NCBI GenBank assembly: GCA_965216295.1
Contig: OZ244141.1
Location: forward strand, 295,671-359,670
From: Minisyncoccota bacterium
GTDB lineage: Bacteria > Patescibacteriota > Minisyncoccia > Phycocordibacterales > JABAAK01
Direction: 5' to 3'
DNA: 64,000 nt
The position numbers and the translations under genes were made by a program. Position 1 is the first letter of the stretch; every line of letters starts with the position of its first letter. Of this stretch, positions 2,108 to 54,904 are shown piece after piece. A model generated the notes under the pieces. The model was not told where the DNA came from. It did not search any database and was given only the letters and a program-made list of their open reading frames with translations.

Positions 2108-2164
2108 CATACAGATAATTATTTACATCAATAAATTTAAGGTTGAGTTTTTTATACATAACAC

Positions 2165-2190
2165 AGCTTATATTTTTTAAAATATAAGCT
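2165..2190. promoter_or_regulatory. perfect palindrome AGCTTATATTTT-tt-AAAATATAAGCT (12-bp arms) about 15 bp upstream of the methyltransferase start; candidate operator
   Basis: The inverted repeat was read directly. It lies between tRNA-Glu and the ATG at 2205. Confidence 0.4.
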
Positions 2191-2204
2191 ATACTTAACT
2201 TAAT

Positions 2205-3296
2205 ATGAGTAACACAAGGTGGAGCAGGATACCAAAAAATATAAGAAAAAATGTTCATGGAATGTGTAGCTATCTAGCGATGTTTCCACCAAATATTCCA
2301 AACTATTTTATTAAAAAATATACAAAAGAAGGTGATGTTGTTTTAGATCCATTTTCCGGAAGAGGTACTACTATCACAGAGGCTTCCTATCTCAACAGAA
2401 AGGCAATAGGTTCAGATTTAAACCCATTAGCAATAGTTTTATCTCGTGCCAAAGTTAGTGTCCCATCAAGAAATTCTATAATTAGAAGAATAAAAAAAAT
2501 TGAAACAGATTTTAAAAAATCAAAAAAAAATAGTATCATCAATCAAGAAAAAAATATAAAGATGATTTTTAATCCTAGTACACTAAGAGAATTAGTTTTT
2601 CTTCAAGATAATTTAAATTGGAAAAAAAATAGAATTGATAATTACATAACTGCAATGATTCTAGGGATTTTACACGGCGGATCAAAAAATTATCTATCAA
2701 TTCAAATGCCTAATACTTTTTCAATGTCTCCAAACTACATCAAAAGTTATATAAAAAAAGAAGGATTGAAAAAAGAATATAGAAATGTATTTAAATGTCT
2801 TCGTAAAAAATTTGAGAATTGTTATGATAAACCAAATATTGCAGGGAATGTATTTAAACAGAATGCATTAAAGATGAATAAGGTGAAAAAAAATAGCGTA
2901 AATTTGATAATCACATCACCACCATATTTAGACGTAATTAAATACGGACAATATAATTGGATAAGGCTTTGGTTTATAAAAGAGGGTGCGAGAAAGATAG
3001 ATCAAACACTATTTACATCTCAATCTCTAAATAAGTATGTTAATTTTATGAAAGATTTTTTAAACCAATCAAAAAAAGTACTAAAAAGAAACGGAAAAAT
3101 TATACTAATAATAGGTGATGTTAGAGGTTTAAATCTTGCGAAAAAAGTTTGGGAAAATAGCGCGGAACCACTCGGTTATGTAAAAGAATATTTGTTAAAG
3201 GATGAAATTGATGAAAACACAAAAACTACAAAAATATGGAATGAAAGAAAGGGAAAAGCTACGAAAATTGATAGAGTTCTTATTTTGTCAAACTAG
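2205..3296 (+). CDS. DNA amino-methyltransferase (N4-cytosine or N6-adenine), motif I then motif IV order
   Basis: 363 aa. Motif I-like VVLDPFSGRGTTITEA lies near the N-terminus and motif IV LIITSPPYLD about 190 aa later, with a putative target-recognition region between. Very AT-rich coding sequence. The 3' end overlaps the convergent GHKL gene by 9 nt. Confidence 0.75.
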   Translation: MSNTRWSRIPKNIRKNVHGMCSYLAMFPPNIPNYFIKKYTKEGDVVLDPFSGRGTTITEASYLNRKAIGSDLNPLAIVLSRAKVSVPSRNSIIRRIKKIETDFKKSKKNSIINQEKNIKMIFNPSTLRELVFLQDNLNWKKNRIDNYITAMILGILHGGSKNYLSIQMPNTFSMSPNYIKSYIKKEGLKKEYRNVFKCLRKKFENCYDKPNIAGNVFKQNALKMNKVKKNSVNLIITSPPYLDVIKYGQYNWIRLWFIKEGARKIDQTLFTSQSLNKYVNFMKDFLNQSKKVLKRNGKIILIIGDVRGLNLAKKVWENSAEPLGYVKEYLLKDEIDENTKTTKIWNERKGKATKIDRVLILSN

Positions 3297-5522: not shown

Positions 5523-5746
5523 AATCTAAACTTTTTATTTCTTTTATAATGAAACTTACTTTTTATATTTTTTACCTCTATTTCTATTTCTTTAAATATT
5601 TTTTGAATTTCCGCTTCATTATATTCATATGCACTTCTGTTAGCGCAATTTCCAAGTATTTTTAGAGACTTAAGAACCATGTTAGTTCTATAGTTAGCTA
5701 ATCTTCTAAATCTATCCCTTTTTTCCTTTGGTTTATTATTTATCAT
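5519..5746 (-). CDS. small basic protein, hypothetical; translationally coupled to the GHKL ATPase
   Basis: 75-aa ORF, Lys/Arg-rich, ATG start. Its stop overlaps the GHKL start codon, and an AT-rich putative promoter region (TATATATAT) lies upstream. Confidence 0.45.
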   Translation of the reverse strand: MINNKPKEKRDRFRRLANYRTNMVLKSLKILGNCANRSAYEYNEAEIQKIFKEIEIEVKNIKSKFHYKRNKKFRL

Positions 5747-5876
5747 AAATACGTAGTGTATTTATATATATATCATATCCTTATGTTATTTGTCAATTAT
5801 AAGGTGTCTTAGTGTTTAATAAAGAAAATTTGTGATTGTAAATATGGAGAAAAGGTATCAAAAAATAAACAAAACT

Positions 5877-6686
5877 CTATTCCTCCAAAATATAGTAGGT
5901 GATAGAAGAATATGAGGTTATCTTATTCTCACCAACACTAATAGGCACATCAGCTACATCTAACGACGAGGATTCTAAACTAACAGATTTGGCACCGTAT
6001 TGTGAAGAGTTTCGATATGGAGAAGCACCACCACCACCTATATTCACACTCATTACCTTACCGAGACGTATACCCGTCTCTTTTGATACCTTTTTCGCTC
6101 TCTCCTTTGCATTTTTCACTGAAAGGACAAGAGCATCATCTTGCAATTCTCGCTGTTTTTCAGGATCAACCAAGAACTGAAGATTACTCACATTTTCAAC
6201 ACCTTTGTCGGAGATAGCAGAGAGGATACCTGCAGCAGCATCTAAATCTCGTATCGTTATCGCAGTAGTATGAGTTACTTCATATCCTTTAAATACTCGT
6301 TTGCGAGTACCTTTTTTAGCAAGTATTTCATACTCATACTTTGGATGTATAGAATAGGTGATTGTTTTAACATCTTCGTCATCAATCTTAGCCTTTTTAT
6401 CCAAATAATTATATATATCAGACACCTTCTCAGAAACCGCAACTCTTGCTTGAGAAACATCATCATTCAATTCTCGAACAGTGAAACTCAACTGTGCTAT
6501 GTCTGGGATAGCGAGTACTTCTCCGTATCCAGTAAAGGTGAGCGTATCTCTCTCATTCAAATTAGCAACTCTATTTTCTCTGTATGTGTAGGATAAGACA
6601 GCAATAGAAATAACGACAAGTAAAACCGTAGCAGAAAGCATGAGTGCTATGAGAGCTTTGGTTTTTTTATCCATATCTGCGAACAT
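5877..6686 (-). CDS. SIMPL-domain (DUF541, YggE-like) periplasmic/membrane-anchored protein
   Basis: 269 aa with an N-terminal TM anchor. The C-terminal region shows the SIMPL-like pattern (ALVLSVKNAKERAKKVSKETGIRLGKVMSVN). Confidence 0.6.
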   Translation of the reverse strand: MFADMDKKTKALIALMLSATVLLVVISIAVLSYTYRENRVANLNERDTLTFTGYGEVLAIPDIAQLSFTVRELNDDVSQARVAVSEKVSDIYNYLDKKAKIDDEDVKTITYSIHPKYEYEILAKKGTRKRVFKGYEVTHTTAITIRDLDAAAGILSAISDKGVENVSNLQFLVDPEKQRELQDDALVLSVKNAKERAKKVSKETGIRLGKVMSVNIGGGGASPYRNSSQYGAKSVSLESSSLDVADVPISVGENKITSYSSITYYILEE

Positions 6687-41383: not shown

Positions 41384-44300
41384 TTACTGAGGATCTGATA
41401 CCTCTTGGATACGAAGAGTGACCTCATTGTTTCTGGTAGAGGTTTTGCCACGCAGTTTCACTGTTCTTGTTGGTACCAACATCTCTTCATACCGCTGTAC
41501 TGCATCAGAAAAACACACCGCATCAAGTGTTTCGTTATTATCATCCTCAAGGGTAATGAAGTACATGAGGTTACCATCTTTTGTTCTTGTCGGACGAAGT
41601 TTTGTGATAACACCCATAACATTGATATCTTTGTTATCACCAAGTGATTGAACATCACAGAGCGGTATTCCAACACGTTTAAAGCTATGCAGTGGATGTC
41701 CGGTGACATAGAAACCGAGAAGATCTTTTTCCCACGCAAGTCCCTGTACCTCCGTTACTGAATCAGCGGGTTTCAAGTGAAGCGAAGAACCAGACAAATC
41801 ATCATCGGCAAAGAGCATTCCTTGATCTTCTTTACTATTCCGCACTTCTTTGAGAAGTACCAACAAGGTATCCAAGTTATGCAACAAGACACTACGTTCA
41901 GAAAACGCATTGAGGCAACCTACTTTAATTAATGCTTCAAGTGCCTGTTTGTTTACCCCAACACAACCTCGTTGCAAAAAATCTTCTAAGTTTTCAAATG
42001 GTTTTTGTTTTCTGTGTTCTAAGATAGTTTCAACAATTCCCGCTCCAACATGACGGACTGTTTCTAAACCAACACGGATACCAGTTTCCGTCACGTTACC
42101 ATCGGTATGTTCTTCAGTGGTAAATTCTCTGCTACTTTTTTGTATATCGGTAGGGAATATCTTGATACCAAGTCGTTTTGATTCAAAAATTAAATCAGCA
42201 ATACGTTCAAGATTTCCTATCTCCGCCGTTAAGTGAGCAGCCATATATTCAGCAAGGTAGTGAGTTTTAATGTATGCCGTCTGATATGACACTTTTGCAT
42301 AGCTCATTGCGTGTGCTTTGTTAAATCCATACCCTTTGAATGGATCAAATAAGTTCCATAACCTATCTGCCTGTCCTTTTGTCATGTTTGAATGTTTCAT
42401 AACTCTTGCCTTGAACAATTTTTCTTGCTGTGCCATCAACTCTGGTATCTTTTTACCAACTGCTTTACGGAATACATCTACCTCTTTCCAGTTATAGTTA
42501 GCAAGGTTGAGTGCGGTATAGAGGAGGTCTTCCTGGTACACAAACACACCGTAGGATTGTTTCAGGTATTCTTCCATCTTTGGGTGCAGGTAGGTTGTTG
42601 GTGTTTCTCCATGTTTTCGTTTGATGTACTCATCAATGTTTTTCATTGGTCCAGGACGATAGAGGGCAATACATGCGGCAAGGTCATGGATGGAGTTTGG
42701 TTTCATGCGTTTCAAGACACTCGTCATACCGTAGCTACCAAGTTGAAAAATCCCTTTCGTGTAACCATCTGAAATAAAGGTAAACACTTTTTGATCGTCG
42801 AGTGGTATGGTATCAATATCAATTTTTTTACCGTATCGTTTTTCAATACGTTTCAATGCATCAGCAAGAATAGCAAGGTTCGTTAATCCAAGAAGATCAA
42901 ACTTGAGTAACCCCGCATCTTCTACGGCATGCATGTTGTATTGCGTGATTGGTCGCCCTGTTCCTTTCGGTTCATTTTCAAGAGGAGTGTATTCAACAAT
43001 ATCATTTGGTGCGATAACGATACCAGCGGCATGAACAGAGATGTGTCGTGCATTTCCTTCAATCTTTTTTGCTGTATTAATGATGTGACGCACATCTTCT
43101 TCTTGTGTATGTAAAGCACGAAGTTCAGGTACTTCATGCATTGCTCTTTGAATAGTCATTGGCTGTCCTTGCAAACCGAGAGGAATTAATCGTGCAATGC
43201 GGTTTCCAGTGATGTATGAATAACCAAGTGCTCGTGCCGTATCACGAACAGCAGCGCGAGCCATCATTGTTCCAAACGTTCCTATCTGTGCTACTTTCTC
43301 TTTACCGTACTTCTGTATGATGTATTCAACAATATCAGAACGACGGTTGTCACTGACATCAATATCAACATCAGGTGGTGAAGGACGAAACGGATTGAGA
43401 AATCGTTCAAAAGGAAGTCTATACTCAAGTGGGTTCACATTGGTAATACGGGTAAGGTAACTAACTAAGGAACCTGCGGCAGATCCTCGTGTTGAGGTTA
43501 GTATGTTGTTTTTGTGCATGAAACGCACTAAGTCAATCATGGTTAGAAAGTAGGGAACATACTTTTTTTCTTCAATAACTGAGAGTTCATAGCGAATACG
43601 CTCATCAACCTCTTTGGTTCTCTCCATACCTCGTTCTTGTAACCCATCTGCAACATACTGTTTCAACAGAACCGTTTGTTCACTTTCAGTCCCACCAACA
43701 GGTGGTTTGGGAAATACCCATTCACCAATACGTAATTGAATATCAATACTATCAACCAACTGTGCCAGATTGTCATATAACTGGGGTGTTTTTTCAGCTT
43801 TTTCTGCTATTTCATCCCTGGAGGGGAGTTTCAGTGAAATGTTTTCAAAAACATCTTCTTCAATGTCTGAGAGTCGTGTTGGCTGTATGCGAAGCAATAC
43901 CTTTCGTGCTTCCATGTCTTCATCATCTAAGTAGTAGGTAGGTTCCATGGGAACACACGGTATGCCTGCTTGTGTGACAAGATCTTCTATTTTTTTAATT
44001 GGAAGTGTGTCTAGTTTTTGGTGAGGGATGCCTGCGTAGAGTGCGTTGGGAAATATTGTTTGCAATGTCGTGAGCATCTTTTGTGCCATCGACATGTTTC
44101 CTAATCGGACTGCCGTAGTTACCGGACTATTAAAAGGAGGGAGTATTGCTATGAGATTTTGAGAAAATTTTTGTAAATCATCAAATTGTATTGACGGTGG
44201 TTTTGTTTTTGCAGTGACTTGATGAAATGTTACCAACCGCATGAGTGTTTTGTACCCATCAACGTTTTTTGCTAAAAAAACAAGACGAGAAAGTGTCTCT

Positions 44301-44578
44301 GTATTGGTATTAACATACAGTGTTACGCCAATGAGTGGTTTTATATTATGTTTGTGACACGCTTTATAGAAAGGGAGTGCGCCGTAGAGGTTTGATGTGT
44401 CGGTTAATGCTAATGCATCACACCCACGTTCCTTTGCAACCTTCACGAGTGCGCCAATCTTTGGTATACCCCGTAAAAAAGAGTAGTGGCTGTGTGTATT
44501 AAGCGGTGCGTAGTACCTCACAAAGTTCAGTATACAATGATTGGGCAATGGCGAATGTGGATAGGCGGTGTACAACAA
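41384..44578 (-). CDS. dnaE: DNA polymerase III alpha subunit
   Basis: 1064 aa. N-terminal PHP domain (HSHYSFLRG...), polymerase core, and OB fold. Confidence 0.9.
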   Translation of the reverse strand: MLYTAYPHSPLPNHCILNFVRYYAPLNTHSHYSFLRGIPKIGALVKVAKERGCDALALTDTSNLYGALPFYKACHKHNIKPLIGVTLYVNTNTETLSRLVFLAKNVDGYKTLMRLVTFHQVTAKTKPPSIQFDDLQKFSQNLIAILPPFNSPVTTAVRLGNMSMAQKMLTTLQTIFPNALYAGIPHQKLDTLPIKKIEDLVTQAGIPCVPMEPTYYLDDEDMEARKVLLRIQPTRLSDIEEDVFENISLKLPSRDEIAEKAEKTPQLYDNLAQLVDSIDIQLRIGEWVFPKPPVGGTESEQTVLLKQYVADGLQERGMERTKEVDERIRYELSVIEEKKYVPYFLTMIDLVRFMHKNNILTSTRGSAAGSLVSYLTRITNVNPLEYRLPFERFLNPFRPSPPDVDIDVSDNRRSDIVEYIIQKYGKEKVAQIGTFGTMMARAAVRDTARALGYSYITGNRIARLIPLGLQGQPMTIQRAMHEVPELRALHTQEEDVRHIINTAKKIEGNARHISVHAAGIVIAPNDIVEYTPLENEPKGTGRPITQYNMHAVEDAGLLKFDLLGLTNLAILADALKRIEKRYGKKIDIDTIPLDDQKVFTFISDGYTKGIFQLGSYGMTSVLKRMKPNSIHDLAACIALYRPGPMKNIDEYIKRKHGETPTTYLHPKMEEYLKQSYGVFVYQEDLLYTALNLANYNWKEVDVFRKAVGKKIPELMAQQEKLFKARVMKHSNMTKGQADRLWNLFDPFKGYGFNKAHAMSYAKVSYQTAYIKTHYLAEYMAAHLTAEIGNLERIADLIFESKRLGIKIFPTDIQKSSREFTTEEHTDGNVTETGIRVGLETVRHVGAGIVETILEHRKQKPFENLEDFLQRGCVGVNKQALEALIKVGCLNAFSERSVLLHNLDTLLVLLKEVRNSKEDQGMLFADDDLSGSSLHLKPADSVTEVQGLAWEKDLLGFYVTGHPLHSFKRVGIPLCDVQSLGDNKDINVMGVITKLRPTRTKDGNLMYFITLEDDNNETLDAVCFSDAVQRYEEMLVPTRTVKLRGKTSTRNNEVTLRIQEVSDPQ

Positions 44579-45204
44579 CGAACACTGTTCAGATAAAACG
44601 ATATGTTGCGGGTATTGACGAGGTGGGGAGAGGACCTCTTGCAGGACCAGTGAGTGTTGGTCTTGTTATGTGGCTTGACACAACACACGATCCACACACA
44701 CTTCTCTCTGGTATACGAGATTCAAAACAACTTTCTTCTAGCAAGCGAGTGTGGTGGGTAGAAAAACTACAACAGCTTGTAAAAGAACAAATACTCTGGA
44801 CAACAGTCGTATCAACGAAACCAGAAGTCATTGATGAGAAGGGAATTATGGTCGCACTTGCACAGGCAGCAGAGAAGGCACTTGCACAGGGGAAAAAACA
44901 AATAGGTTTTTCCGAACAGAACGTCTCTCTCTTGAGTGACTACGGACTACCGACACCACAATCATATACAACACAGCACATCATTAAGGGTGATGAGAAA
45001 GAACCACTCATTGCTGCTGCATCAATTGTCGCAAAAGTGTGGCGGGATGCACGCATGGAACACTACCACACCATATATCCGCACTACGCACTCAATACGA
45101 ACAAAGGGTACGGTACTGCATTTCATCGCAAAGCGCTGAGAGATCATGGACCAACCGTTATACACCGTCGTTCGTTCTTGAAAAATATAGAGTTGTTCAA
45201 ATAG
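44548..45204 (+). CDS. rnhB: ribonuclease HII
   Basis: VAGIDEVGRGPLAGPV catalytic motif. The start is the ATG at 44548; the ORF-track start is an upstream GTG that overlaps the dnaE start. Confidence 0.8.
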   Translation: MANVDRRCTTTNTVQIKRYVAGIDEVGRGPLAGPVSVGLVMWLDTTHDPHTLLSGIRDSKQLSSSKRVWWVEKLQQLVKEQILWTTVVSTKPEVIDEKGIMVALAQAAEKALAQGKKQIGFSEQNVSLLSDYGLPTPQSYTTQHIIKGDEKEPLIAAASIVAKVWRDARMEHYHTIYPHYALNTNKGYGTAFHRKALRDHGPTVIHRRSFLKNIELFK

Positions 45205-45230
45205 GTGGAGTAGTGGTAGAGTGGGCATAT

Positions 45231-45518
45231 ATGGTGGTACGAATGAGAACTACAAAAGGAAGGCGGAATAACCGTCGTTCCCATCACGTTATAGCGTCTA
45301 CTACAGTTACCACTGATGAGGGTGGTGTTTCTCACGTACGTCACCGTGCAAGTAGAGATACAGGGACGTATCGAGGAAGAATGGTCTTACCCCGTGTGGT
45401 AAAGCGAGAAGAACGAAGAAAATCAAAGCTACAAGCACGAAAGGAGACAGAAGAGCCACAAGAGGAGAAAAAGACAACAGAAAGTGCAAGTATCCCACCA
45501 ACAGAAGAAAACAAGTAA
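45231..45518 (+). CDS. rpmF: 50S ribosomal protein bL32 with long charged C-terminal extension
   Basis: RRSHHVIASTTVTTDEGGVSHVRHRASRDTGTYRGRMV matches the bL32 core (RRSH...H..H....G.YRGR). The upstream in-frame extension overlapping rnhB is rejected. The alternative ATG at 45243 has better GGTGG spacing. Confidence 0.65.
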   Translation: MVVRMRTTKGRRNNRRSHHVIASTTVTTDEGGVSHVRHRASRDTGTYRGRMVLPRVVKREERRKSKLQARKETEEPQEEKKTTESASIPPTEENK

Positions 45519-45577
45519 TTAATACAATATACATACCGTTAGGCGATAAATAGTGATAGAATAGAAGTAGAAACAAT

Positions 45578-46477
45578 ATGGCCTCAACGCGACACGAGAT
45601 ACGTACATTGGTGGTGCAATCATTATATGCATCTGATTTTGGTGGCACGCTAAGAGATAAGGATTCTGTACTGGGGACATTTAATACATTAGCAACAGAA
45701 GCTTCTCCAGAACTGATCAATAATCAATTTGCTGAAACAATCATCTCCGGGATTGTTGGTAAGCTTGATGAATTAGATAGTATTATCGAACGAGTTGCTC
45801 CTAATTGGCCATTGGATAAATTGGGGGTAGTTGAAAGAAATGTTATTCGTATGGGTATCTTTGAGTTACTCTTTGGGAAAACATTGAATGTTCCTGGTCG
45901 TGTTGCTATTAACGAAGCTATTGAATTAGCAAAGTCATTTGCTGGTGAAGGAGGGAGTAAGTTTGTCAACGGCGTTTTGGGTACTATTTTTCGTGAGATA
46001 GGTGGTGATACTGAAACGGTTGTTGTTAAAAAGACACGACGAGTTGTTAAATCAACTGGTGGTCTCGTGTATCACGTTGATGATTCTGGTGAAATTCGAT
46101 TTGCATTGATTAAAGATATTTTTGGTAAGTGGACTCTTTCAAAGGGAAAACTTCAACAAAAAGAAACAGCACAACGTGGTGTTACACGAGTGATACAAGA
46201 GGAACTTGGACTTGCCACGACCATTGATGAGGAAATTGGTTTTAATTCATATATCTCGTACCCACCAGAGGGACCATTGCGAAAAGAAGTGGTGTACTTT
46301 TTGGTGAGAGCACGAGAGAACACTATTACACTAGAAAAGAAAGATGGGTTGGTAGATGCACAGTGGTTTACGAAAGACGAAGTCTCTAAACTCAAACTCT
46401 ATAAAGATATACAAGAAATGATATTTGATGCAATGTTGAAAATATCATCAGAGGTAGCACGAGCAGTAAAAAAATAA
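45578..46477 (+). CDS. nusB: NusB-like antitermination domain fused to a C-terminal NUDIX hydrolase domain
   Basis: The N-terminal roughly 150 aa are NusB-like (HEIRTLVVQSLYASDF..., VVERNVIRMGIFELLF). The C-terminal half has a near-canonical Nudix box, GKLQQKETAQRGVTRVIQEELGL. Confidence 0.65.
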   Translation: MASTRHEIRTLVVQSLYASDFGGTLRDKDSVLGTFNTLATEASPELINNQFAETIISGIVGKLDELDSIIERVAPNWPLDKLGVVERNVIRMGIFELLFGKTLNVPGRVAINEAIELAKSFAGEGGSKFVNGVLGTIFREIGGDTETVVVKKTRRVVKSTGGLVYHVDDSGEIRFALIKDIFGKWTLSKGKLQQKETAQRGVTRVIQEELGLATTIDEEIGFNSYISYPPEGPLRKEVVYFLVRARENTITLEKKDGLVDAQWFTKDEVSKLKLYKDIQEMIFDAMLKISSEVARAVKK

Positions 46478-46482
46478 ACACC

Positions 46483-47157
46483 ATGAAGGGTATTGAAAAA
46501 CGTATCGGGTACACGTTTACGGATCAAGCATACCTTTCTCGTGCCCTCACACACCGTTCCTACACGAATGAAAACCGTGGGAAAGAGGATAACGAAACAC
46601 TTGAGTTTCTTGGTGATGCGGTTCTTCAGTTTATCGCCACCAAACATATCTGTGCCCGCTATCCTGATAAAAAGGAGGGACAGTTAAGTGTGTACCGTGC
46701 GACGTTGGTTAGTACTGAAGCATTGGTTGCCGTTGCCGATACATTAGCATTAGCATCATGTGTTCGGGTTTCTGTTGGGCAAAAAAATACGATGGGTACA
46801 AAAGGGATACATCTGCATGCTGATGCTGTTGAAGCACTCATTGGTGCGCTCTACCTTGATGGTGGCCTTGCGGTTGCTGAGAAGTTTATAGAACAATTCG
46901 TACTCTCTCGGCTTGACACTGTTGTGCAGAAAGATCTCTGGAAAGAACCCAAGACACAACTCCAAGAGATTGCTCAGAAAAAATTAGGAATAACACCACA
47001 CTATGAGGTGATTGAAACAGAAGGCCCTGCCCATGATATGGTTTTTACCGTTGCTGTTTTTTTTGATACAGAACGTATTGCCTCTGGAACAGGGACATCA
47101 CGGCAAGAAGCAGAGAAAAATGCGGCAGAGAAGGGGTTGCTCAAGAAGAAATGGTAA
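46483..47157 (+). CDS. rnc: ribonuclease III
   Basis: Signature NETLEFLGDAVL and a C-terminal dsRBD. Confidence 0.9.
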   Translation: MKGIEKRIGYTFTDQAYLSRALTHRSYTNENRGKEDNETLEFLGDAVLQFIATKHICARYPDKKEGQLSVYRATLVSTEALVAVADTLALASCVRVSVGQKNTMGTKGIHLHADAVEALIGALYLDGGLAVAEKFIEQFVLSRLDTVVQKDLWKEPKTQLQEIAQKKLGITPHYEVIETEGPAHDMVFTVAVFFDTERIASGTGTSRQEAEKNAAEKGLLKKKW

Positions 47158-47160
47158 ACT

Positions 47161-49332
47161 ATGTATTTAAAAGAAGTAACACTCAAAGGATTTAAATCAT
47201 TTGCTTCAGCGTTAACATTGAAGTTTCCCACACAGATAACGGCGATTGTAGGACCAAATGGTTCTGGGAAATCAAACATTACTGAGGCATTTCGATTTGT
47301 GTTAGGTGAACAATCTATGAAAATGCTCCGGAGTCGACGAGGTGGTGACCTTATCTTCAATGGTGGTGTTGGACGAACAAAGAGTAGTAAGGCAGAAGTT
47401 ACCATGGTGTTTGATAACTCAAACAACTTATTTGGTGATACGTTTCGTGAGGTTATTCTCAAACGAATTGTTCATCGAGATGGGAGTAATGAGTACTACA
47501 ACAACGATACGCAGGTACGGCACCGTGATGTGGTTGAATTGCTTGCAAAGGCAAATATTGGGGCAACTGGGCACCATATTATCTCGCAAGGGCAGGCAGA
47601 CCGTATTTTGAATGCAACACTTGAAGAAAGGCGAGAGATGATTGAAGACGGGTTAGGGCTGAAGTTACTACAGTACTGTAAAGGAGAGGCGGAAAAGAAA
47701 ATACAAAAAACAGAGAGAAATCTGGAACGGGTTGAATCACTCCAGCGGGAACTTGCTCCTCATATGAAATACTTGAAGAGGCAGTCTGATCAGTATGAGA
47801 AGGCACAAACACTTCGAGATTCTTTGACTAAAGAGTATGCGGTGTATTTGGCACATGAACAGGCACGATTGGTTGCAGGGAAGAGTGTGGTTGAAAAAGA
47901 AGCGAAAGCATTACAAGCAAAGATTGCTAGTGTTGATAGTGCGATTGATACAGAAAAACAGGGTACGAAAGATAGTACACGGGCAAAAACCTTTAAAGAT
48001 AACGCGACGTCTATTCGTGATGCATTAGCTGATATTGTTGCGAAGAAAGATGAACTCTCTCGTGCTGTTGGAAGAATTGAAGGGCAGCGTGATGCACATG
48101 AAGTGCGAGGAGACAGTGGTGATGGTGGTGTTCCTAAACATGAACTTCAAAAACTCTACACAAACATACAAGAGCGGTTTCATATGGCTGAAACGATTGA
48201 TGAGTATAAAGGGATTGTGACGGCGGTATTAGATCGTTTACAGAAGGTGTTGAGTGGTAGTGGTACTGCACCGCAATCATCTGAGTCAATAGAGAAGGAG
48301 TATGAGAAAAAGAAAGAAGAACTTGATGCGGTGGTAGCGCAAGAGAAAGAGTATATTCAAAAACAGGAAGCACTTCTCCAGGAGCAAGAGGTAATCATTC
48401 AATCGGCAAAGACATCTGAGCAGGCGTTGTTGAAATTGGTGACTGAAAAGAATGGGTTTGAACAAGCACTCGCAGAGGTACGGCATACAACGGAATTGTT
48501 TCAGCAAGATACTGAAGAGTTGCAACGGGAGATTACTGAAGGAAAAGCCCTTATCGGCAACCGTGTCAATGATTACAAAGAGATGTCTGTTACGATAACC
48601 GGTGATGTTACAGCGGTGAGGAAAGAACAACGAGAACGACGCCGAGATTTAGAACGAAAGAAAATTCAGTTAGAATCATTAGAAGGGACGGGGTGTAACC
48701 AAGGGGTGTACAAGGAGTATGAACGTCTCCAAGAACGAGATGCATTTTTACAAAAAGAAAAAGATGATATTCGAAAGGGTATTGCAGATTTAGAAGATAC
48801 TATTAAAACACTCCAGAGAGATATTGATACTCGCTTTAAAAGTGGTATGCGAGCAATTAATACTGAGTTTGGGAAATTCTATAAGACACTCTTTGGTGGG
48901 GGAAAGGCACGGGTTGAAACGGTGACGATAGAGCCACGGAAAGTGGCTGATGACGATGATACAGAGGTAGAAAAGGCTGTTGGTGTTGATATTCGTGTTT
49001 CACTGCCACATAAAAAGATAACTGATCTTGAACAACTCTCAGGTGGTGAACGGGCACTTATCTCCATTGCACTCCTCTTTGCTATCTCACAGGTAACACC
49101 ACCACCATTTTTGATACTTGATGAGACTGATGCAGCACTTGATGAGTCAAACTCACGACGGTATGGAGAGATGATCAAGGCACTATCAAAGAAATCACAG
49201 TTGATTCTCATTACCCACAATCGTGAGACTATGTATGCAGCAGGAGCACTCTATGGTATTACTATGGACTCTATGGGTGCTTCAACCATTCTCTCTATCA
49301 AATTCGATGAAGCAGTACAAGTGGCAAAGTAA
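47161..49332 (+). CDS. smc: SMC-family chromosome segregation ATPase, unusually short (723 aa), no recognisable hinge
   Basis: N-terminus LKGFKSFASALTLKFPTQITAIVGPNGSGKSNITEAFRFVLGEQS, ABC signature LSGGERALISIALLFAI, and Walker B LILDETDAALD. Coiled-coil-like middle. Starts 4 nt after rnc. Confidence 0.75.
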   Translation: MYLKEVTLKGFKSFASALTLKFPTQITAIVGPNGSGKSNITEAFRFVLGEQSMKMLRSRRGGDLIFNGGVGRTKSSKAEVTMVFDNSNNLFGDTFREVILKRIVHRDGSNEYYNNDTQVRHRDVVELLAKANIGATGHHIISQGQADRILNATLEERREMIEDGLGLKLLQYCKGEAEKKIQKTERNLERVESLQRELAPHMKYLKRQSDQYEKAQTLRDSLTKEYAVYLAHEQARLVAGKSVVEKEAKALQAKIASVDSAIDTEKQGTKDSTRAKTFKDNATSIRDALADIVAKKDELSRAVGRIEGQRDAHEVRGDSGDGGVPKHELQKLYTNIQERFHMAETIDEYKGIVTAVLDRLQKVLSGSGTAPQSSESIEKEYEKKKEELDAVVAQEKEYIQKQEALLQEQEVIIQSAKTSEQALLKLVTEKNGFEQALAEVRHTTELFQQDTEELQREITEGKALIGNRVNDYKEMSVTITGDVTAVRKEQRERRRDLERKKIQLESLEGTGCNQGVYKEYERLQERDAFLQKEKDDIRKGIADLEDTIKTLQRDIDTRFKSGMRAINTEFGKFYKTLFGGGKARVETVTIEPRKVADDDDTEVEKAVGVDIRVSLPHKKITDLEQLSGGERALISIALLFAISQVTPPPFLILDETDAALDESNSRRYGEMIKALSKKSQLILITHNRETMYAAGALYGITMDSMGASTILSIKFDEAVQVAK

Positions 49333-49334
49333 CT

Positions 49335-49742
49335 ATGAAACAAAAGGTACGGAAAAGTAAGTATGACGTACGGATTGGTCGCTCTGCGAGTGGGCAGGGT
49401 CTATTTACAAAAGCACCTATTCGAAAAGGGGACTTTGTGATTGAATACCATGGACCTATTATTTCACGTGAACGGGCAGATGCGATGGGAGGGCGGTATC
49501 TCTTTGAAGTGAGTGAACGGAAGGTTATCAATGGTTCGGTGAGGTACAACCTAGCACGCTATATCAATCATTCCTGTCGTCCAAACTGTGAGACTGATGT
49601 GGTGCGTGGGAAGGTGTATATCTATGCGAGACGCAATATTCGTATGGATGAGGAGTTACACTACGATTACGGTAAAGAGTACTTTGAAGAGTTTATTGAG
49701 CCTGCTGGGTGTCAGTGTGAGAAGTGTGCGGGTCGTCGGTAA
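49335..49742 (+). CDS. SET-domain protein (putative protein lysine methyltransferase)
   Basis: 135 aa with RYINHSCRPNCE (the NHSCxPN motif), DEELHYDYG (the ELxxDY motif), and a Cys-rich post-SET CQCEKCAG. Starts 3 nt after the smc stop. Confidence 0.75.
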   Translation: MKQKVRKSKYDVRIGRSASGQGLFTKAPIRKGDFVIEYHGPIISRERADAMGGRYLFEVSERKVINGSVRYNLARYINHSCRPNCETDVVRGKVYIYARRNIRMDEELHYDYGKEYFEEFIEPAGCQCEKCAGRR

Positions 49743-51132
49743 GGAGGTCTGTTTTATAAATTTCTTTTTGTGTTACATATTCTTTGAAAACTTTAAAAAA
49801 ACTTTTTGCCATCTGTTCGTAATAATTTTTGTCATATAAATTTTCATATTCATATTCTTTAGGAAAAGATTCACAGTATTCTCTAGACAAGACATCTTCT
49901 TGTTTTTTTAGTACAGAATCGTTTGATTGATTTTTTTGAAGTTGAAAGGTTTCATGCAACATGTAAGCACCGATATTTTCTAAATTGTGTATAGCATAAA
50001 AATTTTTATGACAAAGCACTGTTTTTTCTATTAAATATTTTTCTGCTGAATCAATAGCAGCAAGGAATTTTTCTTTATCATTATTAAAGATATGCAATAA
50101 AATTTCCATCATGAGATCAATGTTTGTTTTATTTGTTGCTTCTTGTGTGTTATGTTGCAAGACGTTAAGACTGAATGAAGGAAATTTTTGAAGTGTAAAA
50201 AGGTTTCTTAGATTTATTACTTTCATAGGAATAGCAGATTTTACAAAAAGAGCAATTATAAATTGAACTTCGTCATTCAATGGCTGTGGCGTTTGATTCA
50301 TTATTTCGGTATTACAATGTCCTAATACTATCTCTTGAAGTTTATTTAATACTTCTTTTTCTATATTGTATTGATATGGTTCTTTGGAGAAAAATTTATT
50401 TATATATCCATTAAAATCAGTTTCATTTCCATATATATGATGATAGACTTTTTCAAGATTATTAAAATCACCAACGAATATCACTCTATCAAAACCAAAT
50501 TTATTCTTTTCATCATCTTGCAAAGGAGAAAAGGCATTTAGTATTTTAAACGCATGTTTTGGTTCAAGGCGATCTAAATCATCTAATATCAAAATGTTTT
50601 CTTTAGCAAGATCCATTTTATCTTCTCTACCATCTTTTACTTCTTTCAATGCTTCAGAGATGAAATTTTCCAAACAACTATTATGTATTTTTTTTACAGT
50701 ACTTTGGACTTCTGAGTTTTCTCCATTTAAAAGTTTTTTAATGGTTTCAATAGTTTGTGATTTAATACCAACCAAAGATCCAAAACATTTTATTATAAGA
50801 TCTTTTGCATTTTTTAATTTTATTTTTCCATTTTCATCTTTTAAGAATTTATTAATGATAGGCTCGTGTTGCTCTGCTAGTTGTACAAATAAATCAGCTG
50901 CTATAACTTCTAGTATATCAACATCATTGTGTACTTGATATTTAACTGGGTATAAATGAAATGTATTATATTTTTCAGAATTAGCTCTAAAAAATTCATT
51001 TAAAAAGTATGTTTTTCCCATACCAAACGATGCACTAAAGAATATTCTTTTATTACTTTTTAATTCAATAAAAGTATTAAATCCCTCATTTTTAGTTTCT
51101 GTAGATATTATTGTTTTATCCATGTGTAGCAT
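49693..51132 (-). CDS. KAP-like P-loop NTPase, hypothetical
   Basis: 479 aa with Walker A FFSASFGMGKTYFL and Walker B ILILDDLDRL (the hhhhDDLDR type typical of KAP NTPases). The C-terminal 16 codons run through the left direct repeat into the antisense strand of the SET 3' end. Confidence 0.5.
   Translation of the reverse strand: MLHMDKTIISTETKNEGFNTFIELKSNKRIFFSASFGMGKTYFLNEFFRANSEKYNTFHLYPVKYQVHNDVDILEVIAADLFVQLAEQHEPIINKFLKDENGKIKLKNAKDLIIKCFGSLVGIKSQTIETIKKLLNGENSEVQSTVKKIHNSCLENFISEALKEVKDGREDKMDLAKENILILDDLDRLEPKHAFKILNAFSPLQDDEKNKFGFDRVIFVGDFNNLEKVYHHIYGNETDFNGYINKFFSKEPYQYNIEKEVLNKLQEIVLGHCNTEIMNQTPQPLNDEVQFIIALFVKSAIPMKVINLRNLFTLQKFPSFSLNVLQHNTQEATNKTNIDLMMEILLHIFNNDKEKFLAAIDSAEKYLIEKTVLCHKNFYAIHNLENIGAYMLHETFQLQKNQSNDSVLKKQEDVLSREYCESFPKEYEYENLYDKNYYEQMAKSFFKVFKEYVTQKEIYKTDLLTDDPHTSHTDTQQAQ
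49725..49741. repeat. direct repeat copy 1 (TGTGCGGGTCGTCGGTA) at the 3' end of the SET gene; att-like
   Basis: The identical 17-mer recurs at 52986..53002. Flanking similarity extends to about 22 bp with 2 mismatches. Confidence 0.85.
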
Positions 51133-51230
51133 TCTAACATATTAATGAAAAAATAAAATTATCATGAAGAAGGATAAAACTAAGGTTTTAAAACGTTACA
51201 AACAAATAGTTTGTAAAAATTTACTTAAGA

Positions 51231-52010
51231 TTGTATAATAAAAAGATGAACAAAAATAAAACTTTATTTTTCTCCAATCAATGGTTGAATTTTTCTAAAT
51301 TTATTTATGATGTTTTCTCAAAAACACTATTAATTGCGGCATTTATTACACTTATATATTTTCTATTTAAAGGATATTGGATAGAAGTCGGATTATTATT
51401 ATTATTTTCAATATTGATAGCACCAATTATTGAATTTCTGTTAGAAGAAATATTTCGTGTTACATTTTTTACTAAGAAAGAAAGGGTTCTTATGACTAAT
51501 TTTTCTAAGGATAATAACCTAAATGTTGATTCTGTAATGAGTCTTTATGCATCAGGAGCAAAAGACGACATGAAAACATTTTCTGAAAAAACTCAATTAT
51601 TTAAAATGCTATCTCCAGAAAAAAAAGGACTTTCGGCAGTGTTTGGTATTGCGCCTACGATGCTTATTAGTTTATTTGCATATGCAGGATTACTTAGTTA
51701 TTTTTCTACAGGGAATATATATAGTGGAATAGACATCAATTATTTAAACTACGCTTCAATATTGATATTATATCTTGCAGTCGATGTTAGAATTTTACTT
51801 GTTGAAATATATTTTTCCCGACAGCTTAGTGTAACTCCATATGAACAATTTATATTGCCTTTTAAAATAATTACAATACTGCTTTTATGTCTTTTTTTAT
51901 TTTTAAACATTAACTTATCTTATACATTAATATTCAGTGTCGGATTACCATTAATTTTTATATTTTCTATAATAATGTTTTATGGTATTGCGAAAAAGAA
52001 AGATTTGTAA
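51231..52010 (+). CDS. polytopic membrane protein, hypothetical
   Basis: 259 aa with several hydrophobic helices. AT-rich, inside the repeat-bounded segment. Confidence 0.45.
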   Translation: MYNKKMNKNKTLFFSNQWLNFSKFIYDVFSKTLLIAAFITLIYFLFKGYWIEVGLLLLFSILIAPIIEFLLEEIFRVTFFTKKERVLMTNFSKDNNLNVDSVMSLYASGAKDDMKTFSEKTQLFKMLSPEKKGLSAVFGIAPTMLISLFAYAGLLSYFSTGNIYSGIDINYLNYASILILYLAVDVRILLVEIYFSRQLSVTPYEQFILPFKIITILLLCLFLFLNINLSYTLIFSVGLPLIFIFSIIMFYGIAKKKDL

Positions 52011-52309
52011 GTAAGGGTGGAAAATTTATCAAGTGACGCACGGAAAACGAGAAAATCGTTTTTTAAAGTTTTATTCTGTATCTTTGTTGTTAAGTATTAT
52101 ATATTATTTTATATTTTTAACTACGAAGTAGTAGGGAAGAGCATCAAAGAAATTTTTTACTGTTTTTATTTTTGAAAGAGAATGAGGATATAGGTAGAAA
52201 ATCTTTACTAAACATAGTCAACATCGTATCACCTTTTTAATAATCAGTAAAAGGGTAATGAAAACAAATATTAAATCTGATACTAAAATAAGAAATGACA
52301 ATAATATTA

Positions 52310-52954
52310 TTATTTTTTATTTAAATATAAATCTCTTAAATATATGCCACCTATTTCAACAAATTCATTAGCAAAATCATACATTCCATTTTCATATGCG
52401 TAATTTTTCAGTAACACAATAACCTCACTATTACTTTGTATGAATTCTTTCATTGTTTTGAAAGAGCATTCCTGTATATCATATTTACTATCAAAATGTT
52501 GCCCTTCAAATTGTTTAAATAAGAAATCTTTTTCTTTCAATATCATTTTTTTAAGACCACTATTTTCTAATTTAGTTAACCCCAATTCTGTAAGAGCGGA
52601 AGGGGATTGTGATTTAACATTTATTGGAAACTTATCTTCTAAAACTCCTTGTGCTTTTATAATGCTACATCGTGAATCTTCAGGCAAAATACCGACATTT
52701 TTATTAGTTAATGCCTTACATATTAGTTTCAATGGGGAACTCAAATTTTCTCCCAATGATTGAAGATCTTTAGGTGTATCAAGTAATTTTTTAATTTTTT
52801 TCCCAACACCCGAAAAAAGACCTAAAACAATCCCCAAGGCAATTATCGTGGTAGATATGGTAGAAACAATATTAAGAATTTCTATCCAATTCATATTCAT
52901 AAGTATTATAACAAAATTAATAATATTTTGCAAAATCACTACTATTTCTATCAT
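52310..52954 (-). CDS. membrane-anchored hypothetical protein
   Basis: 214 aa. One or two N-terminal TM helices, then a soluble domain with no recognisable motifs. Confidence 0.4.
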   Translation of the reverse strand: MIEIVVILQNIINFVIILMNMNWIEILNIVSTISTTIIALGIVLGLFSGVGKKIKKLLDTPKDLQSLGENLSSPLKLICKALTNKNVGILPEDSRCSIIKAQGVLEDKFPINVKSQSPSALTELGLTKLENSGLKKMILKEKDFLFKQFEGQHFDSKYDIQECSFKTMKEFIQSNSEVIVLLKNYAYENGMYDFANEFVEIGGIYLRDLYLNKK

Positions 52955-52985
52955 ATCTGCAATATATCAATCAAAATACTATAAT

Positions 52986-53002
52986 TGTGCGGGTCGTCGG
53001 TA
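52986..53002. repeat. direct repeat copy 2 (TGTGCGGGTCGTCGGTA)
   Basis: Identical to 49725..49741. In-frame it reads C-A-G-R-R-stop, as does the SET gene end. Confidence 0.85.
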
Positions 53003-53072
53003 GGGATGAAAGTAAAAAATTATTAAAATCCACAAAAAGAAAAATAGAGAAGGAAATAGAAAACGCACAGCA

Positions 53073-53104
53073 GTAGAAAGAATCGAACTCTCGTTTCGTG
53101 CTTG
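53073..53104 (-). repeat. partial tRNA-Gly copy (T-arm to anticodon-stem segment), 29 of 32 identities to the tRNA-Gly gene at 54035..54066
   Basis: gtagaaagaatcgaactctcgtttcgtgcttg here versus gtagggagaatcgaactcccgtttcgtgcttg in the gene. Same orientation. Lacks the acceptor 3' end. Confidence 0.7.
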
Positions 53105-53152
53105 ATTTGTACACATTGATATTTTTAATATCATAAATTATAATAACTACAT

Positions 53153-53359
53153 ATGAATAACTACTTTGAAATGTATTTCAACAGGATGTTTAAGAAAAAA
53201 AATCTATTGAAAGTATGGTTTGATAGTGGTAGTTTTTGGAAAAAAGTTTTTGCTGTTATTGGGCTTTTTGCATGTTATACATCATATGTACTCTTTGCGC
53301 TCTTTATAGTCTATAAAGTATCATATTGGATATCAGTGTACATATATTCACGATATTAA
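53153..53359 (+). CDS. small membrane protein, hypothetical
   Basis: 68 aa with one TM (VFAVIGLFACYTSYVLFALFIV). AT-rich. Confidence 0.3.
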   Translation: MNNYFEMYFNRMFKKKNLLKVWFDSGSFWKKVFAVIGLFACYTSYVLFALFIVYKVSYWISVYIYSRY

Positions 53360-53443
53360 GGTGGAGCAAAATACGGAAAGTGTGTAGAGATTGATAGGGT
53401 AGTGAGAATATATTTTTAAAATAAAAATCTTATTTTATTTCAA

Positions 53444-53986
53444 TTATGGAAAAATATTGAAAAATACAAGAACCAAAAGTAGCGAAGGGGATAGTAAAAG
53501 AGAGGTAAATAGAAAGTCTTTACTCAACAAGGTGGTAAAAAAATTTGAATCTTTCGCGAGTGGTTCACCATATTTATTTTTATCTGCATCACCTTTTTTA
53601 AAACATAACCAAAGAATAAAAAGAATATATATTATACATGAACTTGAATAAATTAAACTAGTAAAAGGAACCTCTATTTCATGAAATCTATTTTCCTGAA
53701 TTATAGCCAGTGGCAATTCTAAGACGATATACATTGGTAAAAAGATTAATATCCACCAACCACTTGCATTAAAATCATGCAATCTTTTAACCATAAAGAT
53801 TGTTAAAATAAAAGCTATAATGAATACGAAAAAATAGTCTAAAAAATAGTCTAAAACACTAGGAGGTTGAAAAAATTGACGACCGTACAAGTTTAATAAA
53901 AAAGGAACAGAAAAAAATATCATTAAAGACATCCCGATCCCAAAAATATAAAATTTTCTATTTATTCTATCATTAATTTTTTCCAT
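53444..53986 (-). CDS. DUF805-family inner membrane protein
   Basis: 180 aa with the RLHDFNASGWWIL motif characteristic of DUF805 (YhaH-like) proteins, and multiple TM helices. Confidence 0.6.
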   Translation of the reverse strand: MEKINDRINRKFYIFGIGMSLMIFFSVPFLLNLYGRQFFQPPSVLDYFLDYFFVFIIAFILTIFMVKRLHDFNASGWWILIFLPMYIVLELPLAIIQENRFHEIEVPFTSLIYSSSCIIYILFILWLCFKKGDADKNKYGEPLAKDSNFFTTLLSKDFLFTSLLLSPSLLLVLVFFNIFP

Positions 53987-54026
53987 ATAACGTTATTACT
54001 ATTATACCTATCGTTTAATTTCTAAA

Positions 54027-54100
54027 TGGTGCGGGTAGGGAGAATCGAACTCCCGTTTCGTGCTTGGGAAGCACGCGTCATACCACTAAACTATACCCGC
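54027..54100 (-). tRNA. tRNA-Gly (anticodon CCC), CCA encoded
   Basis: Reverse complement gives GCGGGTA-TA-GTTTAGTGGTATGAC-G-CGTGC-TTCCCAA-GCACG-AAAC-GGGAGTTCGATTCTCCC-TACCCGC-A-CCA. Confidence 0.8.
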
Positions 54101-54166
54101 AGATACTGAATCAGACATGTCGCACAATATACCTTTTGCGACATATATGCTCATATCATTTAGACA

Positions 54167-54904
54167 CTACAATGTGTACTTACACAAACGAGTATCCATA
54201 ACACCAAGACGATCAATGTGTCGTTCTGCTTCTTCTGCTTTGTCAAAGATGGTAACTAATGAAAGATCTCGTGGACTAATCGTTTTATGCTTCTTTGCAA
54301 ATTCTTCTTCCAAAATAGCGTAGATAGGATCCCAGTACTCTTTACCCATCAAGATAATAGGAACAATCTCTGCTTGTTTAGTTTGAATTAAGGTTAATAG
54401 CTCAAAGAGTTCATCAAGTGTCCCAAAACCACCCGGGAAGAATATATATACCTCTGAGGCACACGATAAGATGGTTTTACGAATAAAAAAATGATCAAAA
54501 GTAATACTTCTATTAACAAACTTGTTCACTTCCTGTTCCTCTGGAAGAAGGATGTTGACACCAGCAGAATCACCTTGGACGAGATAGGCACCACGATTAG
54601 CCGCCCGCATAATGCCTCCAGCACCTCCGGTAATAATGGAAAACCCCTTTTTGGCAAGCATTGCTGCCAACTTCTCTGCTTCTTCATAGTAACGGTTATC
54701 TAAGGACTCACGAGCTGATCCAAAAAATGACGCTGAGAGTTCATAACGGCGTAGAAAAAGAAGACCACGGAAAAATTCAAAAAAGACAAAAAGGGAAATT
54801 TTCATAACACGGAAAAAACTAATACTCGGTGGCCTAGAAAAACCAATTTTCTTTTTTCCATATTGTGGGGGTGTCTCATTAAAATGTTTTGTGGGTAGAG
54901 ACAT
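54167..54904 (-). CDS. LOG-family protein (cytokinin riboside 5'-monophosphate phosphoribohydrolase-like); true start probably internal, near 54805
   Basis: GGAGGIMRAANRGA and PGGFGTLDELFE motifs of the LOG/TIGR00730 family. The N-terminal extension in the ORF track is hydrophobic and dubious. Confidence 0.65.
   Translation of the reverse strand: MSLPTKHFNETPPQYGKKKIGFSRPPSISFFRVMKISLFVFFEFFRGLLFLRRYELSASFFGSARESLDNRYYEEAEKLAAMLAKKGFSIITGGAGGIMRAANRGAYLVQGDSAGVNILLPEEQEVNKFVNRSITFDHFFIRKTILSCASEVYIFFPGGFGTLDELFELLTLIQTKQAEIVPIILMGKEYWDPIYAILEEEFAKKHKTISPRDLSLVTIFDKAEEAERHIDRLGVMDTRLCKYTL

Follow-up and report, generated by a model that had tools for sequence, protein, structure and literature searches.

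The rnc-smc-SET locus

The 64,000-nucleotide (nt) stretch of DNA analyzed here, hereafter the window, comes from a Minisyncoccota bacterium (GTDB lineage Patescibacteriota, Minisyncoccia, Phycocordibacterales; assembly GCA_965216295.1, contig OZ244141.1, forward-strand positions 295,671 to 359,670). Immediately downstream of rnc and of a gene for a short SMC-like ATPase, it carries a gene of 135 amino acids (aa) whose product consists of a SET domain and a cysteine-rich post-SET segment. We read this product as an active cytoplasmic protein-lysine methyltransferase that would depend on S-adenosylmethionine (SAM) and act on the cell's own proteins, and its adjacency to smc as an inherited gene order of one lineage; to this explanation as a whole we assign a probability of roughly 0.7. 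The gene is part of a string on the forward strand with the following members (window coordinates):

44506-45204, + strand: rnhB (RNase HII), string member; maximal open reading frame (ORF) with a GTG start
45578-46477, + strand: NusB-NUDIX fusion (299 aa), string member
46483-47157, + strand: rnc (RNase III, 224 aa); TIGR02191 2e-68, 230 bits against a cutoff of 166; Pfam Ribonucleas_3_3 and dsrm
47161-49332, + strand: short SMC-like ATPase (723 aa); Pfam SMC_N 5.6e-63, residues 2-707
49335-49742, + strand: SET plus post-SET gene (135 aa); Pfam SET 4.3e-22

The string mixes unrelated functions (RNase HII, NusB-NUDIX, RNase III and SMC), and rnc is the first gene of its tightly packed rnc-smc-SET portion. 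The spacer between rnc and smc measures 3 nt (47158-47160) and that between smc and SET 2 nt (49333-49334), which agrees with the 4 and 3 nt of the initial annotation if the start base is counted. Neither a promoter nor a terminator can fit into spacers of this size, and SET is therefore likely to be co-transcribed and translationally coupled with rnc and with smc, whose product lacks a recognizable hinge. A consensus scan for promoters and terminators over 44300-54300 returned counts at or below the shuffled background and was uninformative. The operon order in Bacillus subtilis is rncS-smc-ftsY; the window shares with it an rnc gene immediately upstream of smc on the same strand, but differs in that SET rather than ftsY follows smc and in that the SMC protein is a 723-aa hinge-less form.

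The SET protein

The match to the Pfam SET family (PF00856) reaches 78.9 bits against a cutoff of 22.4 and covers profile positions 1-105 of 105; SET is the sole Pfam domain in the ORF. Three segments of the translation carry most of the diagnostic residues:

49566-49589, + strand: NHSCRPNC motif, residues 78-85; N78, H79, C81, N84 and C85 invariant
49653-49673, + strand: ELHYDYG motif, residues 107-113; E107, Y110 and Y112 invariant; aligns with ELTYDY of MLL1
49710-49727, + strand: post-SET cysteine cluster C126-x-C128-x2-C131, invariant; aligns with the CNCGAKKC post-SET of MLL1

Invariance here refers to an alignment of 32 homologues at 49-64% identity, in which G20, G22, E37, Y38, G40, Y55, N78, H79, C81, N84, C85, E107, Y110, Y112, C126, C128 and C131 are all unchanged, and with them the window's G20-Q-G22, Y38-H-G40, N78-H-S-C-R-P-N84 and E107-L-H-Y-D-Y112 motifs. 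The canonical SET motifs and the Cys-rich post-SET that the initial annotation had recognized are thus present in the translation. The NHSCRPNC segment would form part of the SAM pocket and of the pseudoknot, with C81 as a putative fourth zinc ligand, and ELHYDYG carries the catalytic tyrosine together with the Phe/Tyr-switch position. All SAM-binding and catalytic residues are invariant and the frame is intact; the gene encodes a genuine and apparently active SET plus post-SET methyltransferase. The tyrosine at the switch position, Y110, which we take to be the equivalent of MLL1 Y3942, suggests an enzyme that adds one or two methyl groups rather than three.

An AlphaFold2 model built on the 32 homologues supports the SET beta-fold, with a mean pLDDT (predicted local distance difference test score) of 83.9 and a pTM (predicted template-modeling score) of 0.78. 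The pLDDT exceeds 88 across most of residues 11-110, dips to 81 at residues 51-60 and is low at residues 114-135. The N-terminus (MKQKVRKSKYDVRIGRSASGQG...), judged by eye from the translation, is basic and has no hydrophobic signal-like stretch; nothing, therefore, suggests export, in keeping with the earlier remark that no secretion signal was evident.

Comparison with known SET systems

The closest counterpart among solved structures is the SET plus post-SET region of the eukaryotic SET1/MLL (KMT2) enzymes (PDB 2W5Y, 5F5E). MLL1/KMT2A is the best match both by sequence (2.8e-17), followed by SET1, MLL2-4, EZH2, ASH1L and NSD1-3, and in a Foldseek search with the model (E 6.5e-10, 35-40% identity). 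The SET domains of EZH2, NSD1 and SET8 were likewise recovered by Foldseek; over these domains and that of MLL1, E is about 1e-9, identity 30-40%, probability 1.00 and the template-modeling (TM) score 0.62-0.76, lending further support to the predicted fold. The window protein shares with MLL the GxG, YxG, NHSCxPNC and ELxYDY motifs, the tyrosine at the Phe/Tyr switch and the Cys-rich post-SET. Unlike MLL, it is a stand-alone protein of 135 aa that has no N-SET, WIN or partner-binding region, carries a shorter SET-I insert, spaces its post-SET cysteines as CxCx2C rather than the CxCx4C of MLL1, and sits in a bacterial housekeeping context, where a histone H3 substrate is not expected. Members of the family reach 160-200 bits with one another and about 66 bits with MLL1, and so make up a separate bacterial family.

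The vSET protein of Chlorella virus is a minimal SET of about 120 aa. The window protein is of comparable minimal size, but vSET comprises the SET core only, without a Cys-rich post-SET, and is viral; no viral relatives of the window protein were found in the searches described below.

The best functional precedent is the Go1-SET of Methanosarcina mazei, a small stand-alone prokaryotic SET protein whose target is a DNA-binding protein of the same cell (PMC3980110). It comes from an archaeon, and its substrate MC1 is not expected in Patescibacteria. The chlamydial cpnSET is a bacterial SET protein that acts on the organism's own histone-like protein Hc1 (PMC3980110). NUE, in contrast, is a type III-secreted effector that acts on host histones (PMC2904774, PMC3980110), while for the window protein neither a secretion signal nor a secretion context is seen. 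The Legionella effector RomA/LegAS4 (NCBIfam NF043024) shows SET similarity over window residues 12-114. The window protein is not a member of that family: the match reaches 24 bits against a cutoff of 550, and ankyrin repeats and a type IV secretion system context are both absent.

Size, distribution and origin of the SET family

A protein database search at E<=1e-5 recovered 1074 SET homologues, nearly all of them 120-200 aa long and containing SET only; the few whose source gives a name appear as "SET domain-containing protein(-lysine N-methyltransferase)". When one genome per GTDB species was scanned, at least 577 SET loci were found, the best 80 of which were used for taxonomic composition and gene adjacency. 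By record title, with the proviso that labels of metagenome-assembled genomes may be imperfect, about 44 of these 80 belong to the Patescibacteria and 18 to the Alphaproteobacteria, next to 3 Spirochaetes, 2 Acidobacteria, a single member of the Bdellovibrionales and some unclassified entries. Kaiser-, Yonath-, Wolfe-, Nomura-, Campbell-, Moran-, Uhr- and Lloydbacteria, Paceibacterota and others are represented among the Patescibacteria, and Bradyrhizobium, Microvirga, Rhodopseudomonas, Afipia, Xanthobacteraceae and Hyphomonadaceae among the Alphaproteobacteria. An exhaustive profile search placed the family at 126 clusters (50% identity, E<=1e-30); the entire SET superfamily numbers 24,109.

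The guanine-plus-cytosine (GC) content of the SET gene is 46%, close to the 41% of the backbone and unlike the 26% of the insert that adjoins it. With native-like composition and a large bacterial family behind it, the gene is not sporadic, and it is no recent import from eukaryotes or viruses. The initial annotation had called bacterial SET proteins sporadic, a description that the family's size contradicts; it would also have counted against its own reading a domain that clusters with recently transferred eukaryotic or viral sequences lacking bacterial homologues, and more than 1000 bacterial homologues were found but no viral homologue. A viral or phage origin was considered and set aside, as neither a tblastn search of 50,697 phage records nor a scan of IMG/VR for the pattern returned a relative. 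Recent transfer from a eukaryote was rejected on the cohesion of the family in the bit scores given above and on the native-like GC. The protein belongs, then, to a large, established and vertically inherited bacterial family of stand-alone proteins of 120-200 aa. Domain fusions offered no guide to function, the ten longest family members showing only tandem SET copies or unannotated extensions. A literature search found no paper linking SET domains with Patescibacteria or the Candidate Phyla Radiation.

Linkage of smc and SET among relatives

The smc-SET linkage is not unique to this genome. SET lies directly after smc in nine other loci, which we designate L007, L036, L081 and L083-L088. L007 (Ca. 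Kaiserbacteria) and L036 (Paceibacterota chromosome OZ244939) came from the scan of GTDB species; L081, L083 and L084 were reached via SET homologues, and L085, L086, L087 and L088 via SMC homologues. Where genes were called (L081 and L083-L088), smc and SET overlap by as much as 14 nt or stand as far as 18 nt apart, and in L007 and L036 the tblastn matches of smc and SET lie within about 60 nt of each other. The linked proteins are 41-52% (SMC) and 55-66% (SET) identical to those of the window. The flanks differ among these loci: two extra ORFs stand between rnc and smc in L081, L085 and L086, and SET is followed by frr-mreB, by a LOG-family gene or by others. The longest synteny with the window is found in L087, which keeps dnaE, rnhB, nusB, rnc, smc and SET; there, a LOG-family gene lies some 2.4 kb farther on in the downstream direction.

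The linkage is, at the same time, local. No SMC gene was found within 6 kb of SET in 78 of the 80 species-representative loci. In a neighbor-joining tree of 89 SET sequences, which is of low resolution given a protein of only about 130 aa, all linked genes and the window gene fall into one clade; its sole unlinked member is L082, where a SET gene 63% identical to that of the window follows an RNase T gene rather than smc. L089 encodes an SMC of the same short type (44% identity) with no SET after it. Since the linked genes form a single clade, the adjacency reflects a single evolutionary event that was then inherited, and recurrence in independent lineages was not observed. We conclude that the smc-SET order became fixed a single time, in a Kaiserbacteria-like lineage, and is not a family-wide coupling. 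The conservation of the linkage, which the initial annotation had proposed as a check, therefore holds within one clade and fails beyond it.

Elsewhere in the family, neighboring genes were of little help in assigning a function. Clustering of 771 neighboring ORFs from 84 loci yielded no partner common to the family, the largest neighbor group covering 12 loci, and the attempt to derive a function from a universal neighbor was abandoned because the contexts were lineage-specific. Among them are a family of upstream ORFs of about 290 aa (12 loci), opposite-strand ORFs resembling ruvC and ruvB (9-11 loci) and, upstream of SET, an ORF resembling tyrS (10 loci), with all identities assigned by eye from the N-termini.

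A hinge-less SMC protein

The SMC protein is short, as the initial annotation stated: the SMC_N match spans nearly all of its 723 residues, and no match to SMC_hinge (PF06470) was obtained, even at E<=10 on the central 300 residues. It scores below the TIGR02168 equivalog cutoff (497.4 against 567.35 bits). The canonical heads and a coiled coil are present, and the GPNGSGKS, LSGGE and D-loop motifs are invariant in our SMC alignment (A2). An AlphaFold2 model (pLDDT 81.7) consists of long helical arms at residues 168-315 and 377-578 and, at the tip, two short helices (326-342 and 346-364) with loops of low confidence on either side; a beta-sheet hinge is absent.

This architecture is not peculiar to the window. 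The 120 best SMC homologues, which come from Kaiser-, Wolfe- and Pacebacteria and Parcubacteria, are all 700-820 aa long, and PF06470 is found in 0 of the 120; they are labeled "AAA family ATPase" in NCBI and "chromosome segregation protein" in JGI records. A published survey of the lengths of SMC arms took the hinge as the reference for defining an arm (PMC5344682), and hinge-less SMCs would therefore have escaped it. Our literature search found no paper linking a hinge-less SMC with Patescibacteria. The hinge-less SMC is a more unusual feature of the locus than SET. A form of about 720 aa, common to many Paceibacteria, may also be the more consequential one, as current models treat the hinge as the dimerization interface.

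Low-GC insertion downstream of SET

The 3' end of SET abuts low-GC DNA that extends to a tRNA gene and includes the following features:

49693-51132, - strand: ORF for a KAP-family P-loop NTPase; Pfam KAP_NTPase 6.9e-07, PADLOC candidate defence family PDC-S20 9e-10
49725-49745, + strand: left 21-bp direct repeat (TGTGCGGGTCGTCGGTAAGGA), codons C131 to stop plus 3 nt
49746-52985: insert A, 3.24 kb, 25.7% GC; KAP NTPase and two ORFs of unknown function
52986-53006, + strand: right direct repeat (TGTGCGGGTCGTCGGTAGGGA; ...TAGGGA), one mismatch, TAA to TAG at the stop position
53073-53104, - strand: degenerate copy of tRNA-Gly positions 35-66, 29/32 nt; direct repeat D4, counterpart at 54035-54066
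53105-54026: insert B, about 0.9 kb, 26% GC; ORF for a DUF805 membrane protein
53444-53986, - strand: the DUF805 membrane protein ORF in insert B
54027-54100, - strand: tRNA-Gly(CCC), detected by ARAGORN
54117-54144: hairpin ATGTCGCA-N12-TGCGACAT, between the tRNA and a convergent LOG-family gene

The direct repeat, TGTGCGGGTCGTCGGTA(A/G)GGA across both copies, comprises the last 18 nt of SET plus 3 nt and recurs 3.26 kb downstream. Its copies match at 20 of 21 positions, and the two occurrences in the window compare with 0 expected in shuffles. Both copies retain the C131 codon and an in-frame stop, so that the target gene is rebuilt. The KAP NTPase gene converges on SET and overlaps its 3' end by 50 nt, its last 17 or so codons lying antisense to SET. 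Sixty-six nt beyond the right repeat begins the degenerate tRNA-Gly copy, which spans the anticodon stem to the T arm and whose three changes leave the T-stem paired. As this copy bounds insert B, it suggests a second insertion at tRNA-Gly. No tRNA-Gly was found at the corresponding site in L007, L036, L081, L085, L086, L087 or L088.

Comparison with L088 helps to establish the ancestral arrangement. There, the convergent LOG-family gene comes directly after SET, without an intervening tRNA, and an identical 8-bp hairpin stem lies between the two genes (6650-6677); the proteins of the two genomes share only about 50% identity, yet the stem is conserved. The hairpin was probably the original, shared bidirectional terminator of SET and LOG, displaced 4.4 kb from SET by the insert. 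Given the empty site and the shared hairpin, the low-GC DNA is an insertion relative to an ancestral SET-LOG order, and probably the result of two tandem events. Normal-GC genes occupy the position of the insert in L036 and L087.

The initial annotation had named SET as the integration target of the adjacent element. The 21-bp repeat, the drop in GC from 46% to 26% and the empty site in L088 agree with this, and the 3' end of SET is plausibly one attachment site; the tRNA-Gly repeat complicates the picture, and no integrase or recombinase was found among the ORFs of the low-GC inserts (KAP NTPase, two of unknown function and DUF805) with Pfam, PADLOC or PHROGs. With no recombinase gene, the insert is best regarded as a remnant that site-specific integration may have left. 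Comparison of insert A with PHROGs gave nothing informative (one match at 0.0084 to a family of unknown function), and no plasmid DNA match was obtained for the insert.

The right copy of the SET-end repeat (GTGCGGGT-CGTCGGT-AGGGA, 52986-53006) also resembles, a 7-nt insertion aside, the 3' end of tRNA-Gly as read on the + strand (GTGCGGGT-AGGGA, 54027-54047). This resemblance may be due to chance, or the two may be related attachment sites.

Proposed function of the SET protein

In the mechanism that we propose, SAM would be bound in a pocket formed by G20-x-G22, Y38-x-G40 and N78-H79, as expected from the SET fold, and the substrate lysine would enter a channel closed by Y110, Y112 and a zinc-stabilized post-SET (C81, C126, C128 and C131). 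With Y110 at the switch position, the product would be mono- or di-methyl-lysine. Go1-SET methylates MC1-alpha and cpnSET methylates Hc1 (PMC3980110). These are the only characterized prokaryotic SET enzymes with endogenous substrates, and since both of those substrates are small basic DNA-binding proteins, a similar one is proposed here. The most likely substrate, as our best guess by analogy, would be an abundant basic nucleic-acid-binding protein of the cell itself, either nucleoid-associated or a ribosomal or translation protein. In yeast, ribosomal proteins are also among the substrates of SET enzymes. The heterogeneous neighbors of the family favor neither the nucleoid nor the ribosomal alternative, and a literature search for nucleoid-protein substrates of SET enzymes gave reviews only.

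The initial annotation had instead read the linkage to smc as a sign of a role in chromosome organization, for example through methylation of a nucleoid-associated protein. In such a dedicated role, SET would methylate the hinge-less SMC complex (SMC, ScpA or ScpB) or a partner nucleoid protein, and the operon would be a mark of their cooperation. The adjacency itself is real: counting the window, it has been kept, at 18 nt or less or with a short overlap, in 10 loci, even though the linked SMCs are only 41-52% identical to that of the window and the neighbors on both sides have changed. Go1-SET and cpnSET, moreover, methylate endogenous chromatin proteins (PMC3980110). Gene order, the one line of evidence that the locus offers for it, makes a chromosome role possible. 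We nevertheless consider it doubtful, as the linked SET genes trace to a single inherited event rather than a repeated association, the gene has moved beside an RNase T gene within the same clade (L082), an SMC of the same short type can lack a SET neighbor (L089), the hinge-less SMC occurs without the linkage in most other Paceibacteria, and SET lies elsewhere in 78 of the 80 species-representative loci; very small genomes also pack unrelated functions into long co-directional strings. Slightly more doubtful still is the stronger proposal that SET is, in the Kaiserbacteria-like lineage, a fixed, translationally coupled partner of the hinge-less mini-SMC, methylating either the SMC complex or a nucleoid protein that is loaded along with it. 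If true, some of the smallest genomes known would contain a bacterial "writer plus condensin" module. The initial annotation further entertained a host-targeting role, and secreted bacterial SET effectors that methylate host proteins (NUE, RomA/LegAS4, BaSET) are indeed known; Patescibacteria are often epibionts, and the match to the LegAS4 model, though weak, exists. This role is nonetheless very improbable. The match falls far below its cutoff (24 against 550 bits), ankyrin or other targeting domains are absent, and the N-terminus is, by eye, basic and free of a signal-like stretch; the gene sits in a housekeeping string and not near secretion genes. Close homologues occur in contigs labeled Bradyrhizobium, Microvirga, Rhodopseudomonas and Afipia, genera that are free-living, and most of the hosts known for Patescibacteria are prokaryotes that lack tailed histones. 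One might also suppose that SET is a decaying or recently transferred passenger of the low-GC insert with no function of its own, as it abuts foreign DNA of 26% GC and the direct repeat takes in the last five codons of the gene. This explanation is barely credible, and already contradicted by synteny and conservation: the frame is intact with every catalytic residue kept, the 46% GC resembles that of the backbone and not the insert, orthologues follow smc in relatives that lack the insert, and both repeat copies retain the C131 codon and an in-frame stop.

Our preferred explanation, that of a cytoplasmic methyltransferase of endogenous proteins whose place beside smc is a matter of descent, must itself be set against several observations. 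The smc-SET adjacency persisted while its flanks were rearranged, and a real coupling to SMC may thus be underrated here; outside the linked clade, the context of the SET gene is heterogeneous. The post-SET spacing (CxCx2C against the eukaryotic CxCx4C) and the low confidence of the AlphaFold2 model at residues 114-135 leave the zinc site of C81, C126, C128 and C131 putative. Finally, presence, integrity, conservation and synteny of the gene are observed directly, whereas its activity, co-transcription and substrate are inferred.

Stand-alone bacterial SET proteins are numerous, and substrates are known for almost none of them; all those characterized are either effectors of pathogens or single examples from archaea and chlamydiae. 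The locus described here presents SET as a conserved housekeeping gene in ultra-small Patescibacteria, one lineage of which keeps it joined to smc. The proteome of this lineage, at a few hundred proteins, is tractable for an endogenous substrate search. The family had already been annotated, and the window gene adds to it one member and a lineage-specific gene order; it does not reveal a new mechanism.

Other features of the window

Upstream of rnc, the fusion of NusB with a C-terminal NUDIX hydrolase domain is kept in L081, L083, L085, L086, L088 and L089; L087 shows the NusB domain without NUDIX, unlike the other Kaiserbacteria-like relatives. At the start of the string, the maximal ORFs of dnaE (41384-44578, - strand, TTG start) and rnhB overlap divergently by 73 nt, and the true starts of both genes are probably internal to these ORFs. 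The dnaE-rnhB arrangement is conserved in L007, L080 and L087.

A second island of low GC (26.5%), at 2109-5800, abuts a tRNA-Glu (2036-2108). It contains a type II DNA methyltransferase gene (2205-3296; PADLOC MTase_II 1.8e-43) and a convergent ORF of 744 aa (3288-5522) that has no PADLOC match, and is probably a restriction-modification or defence island.

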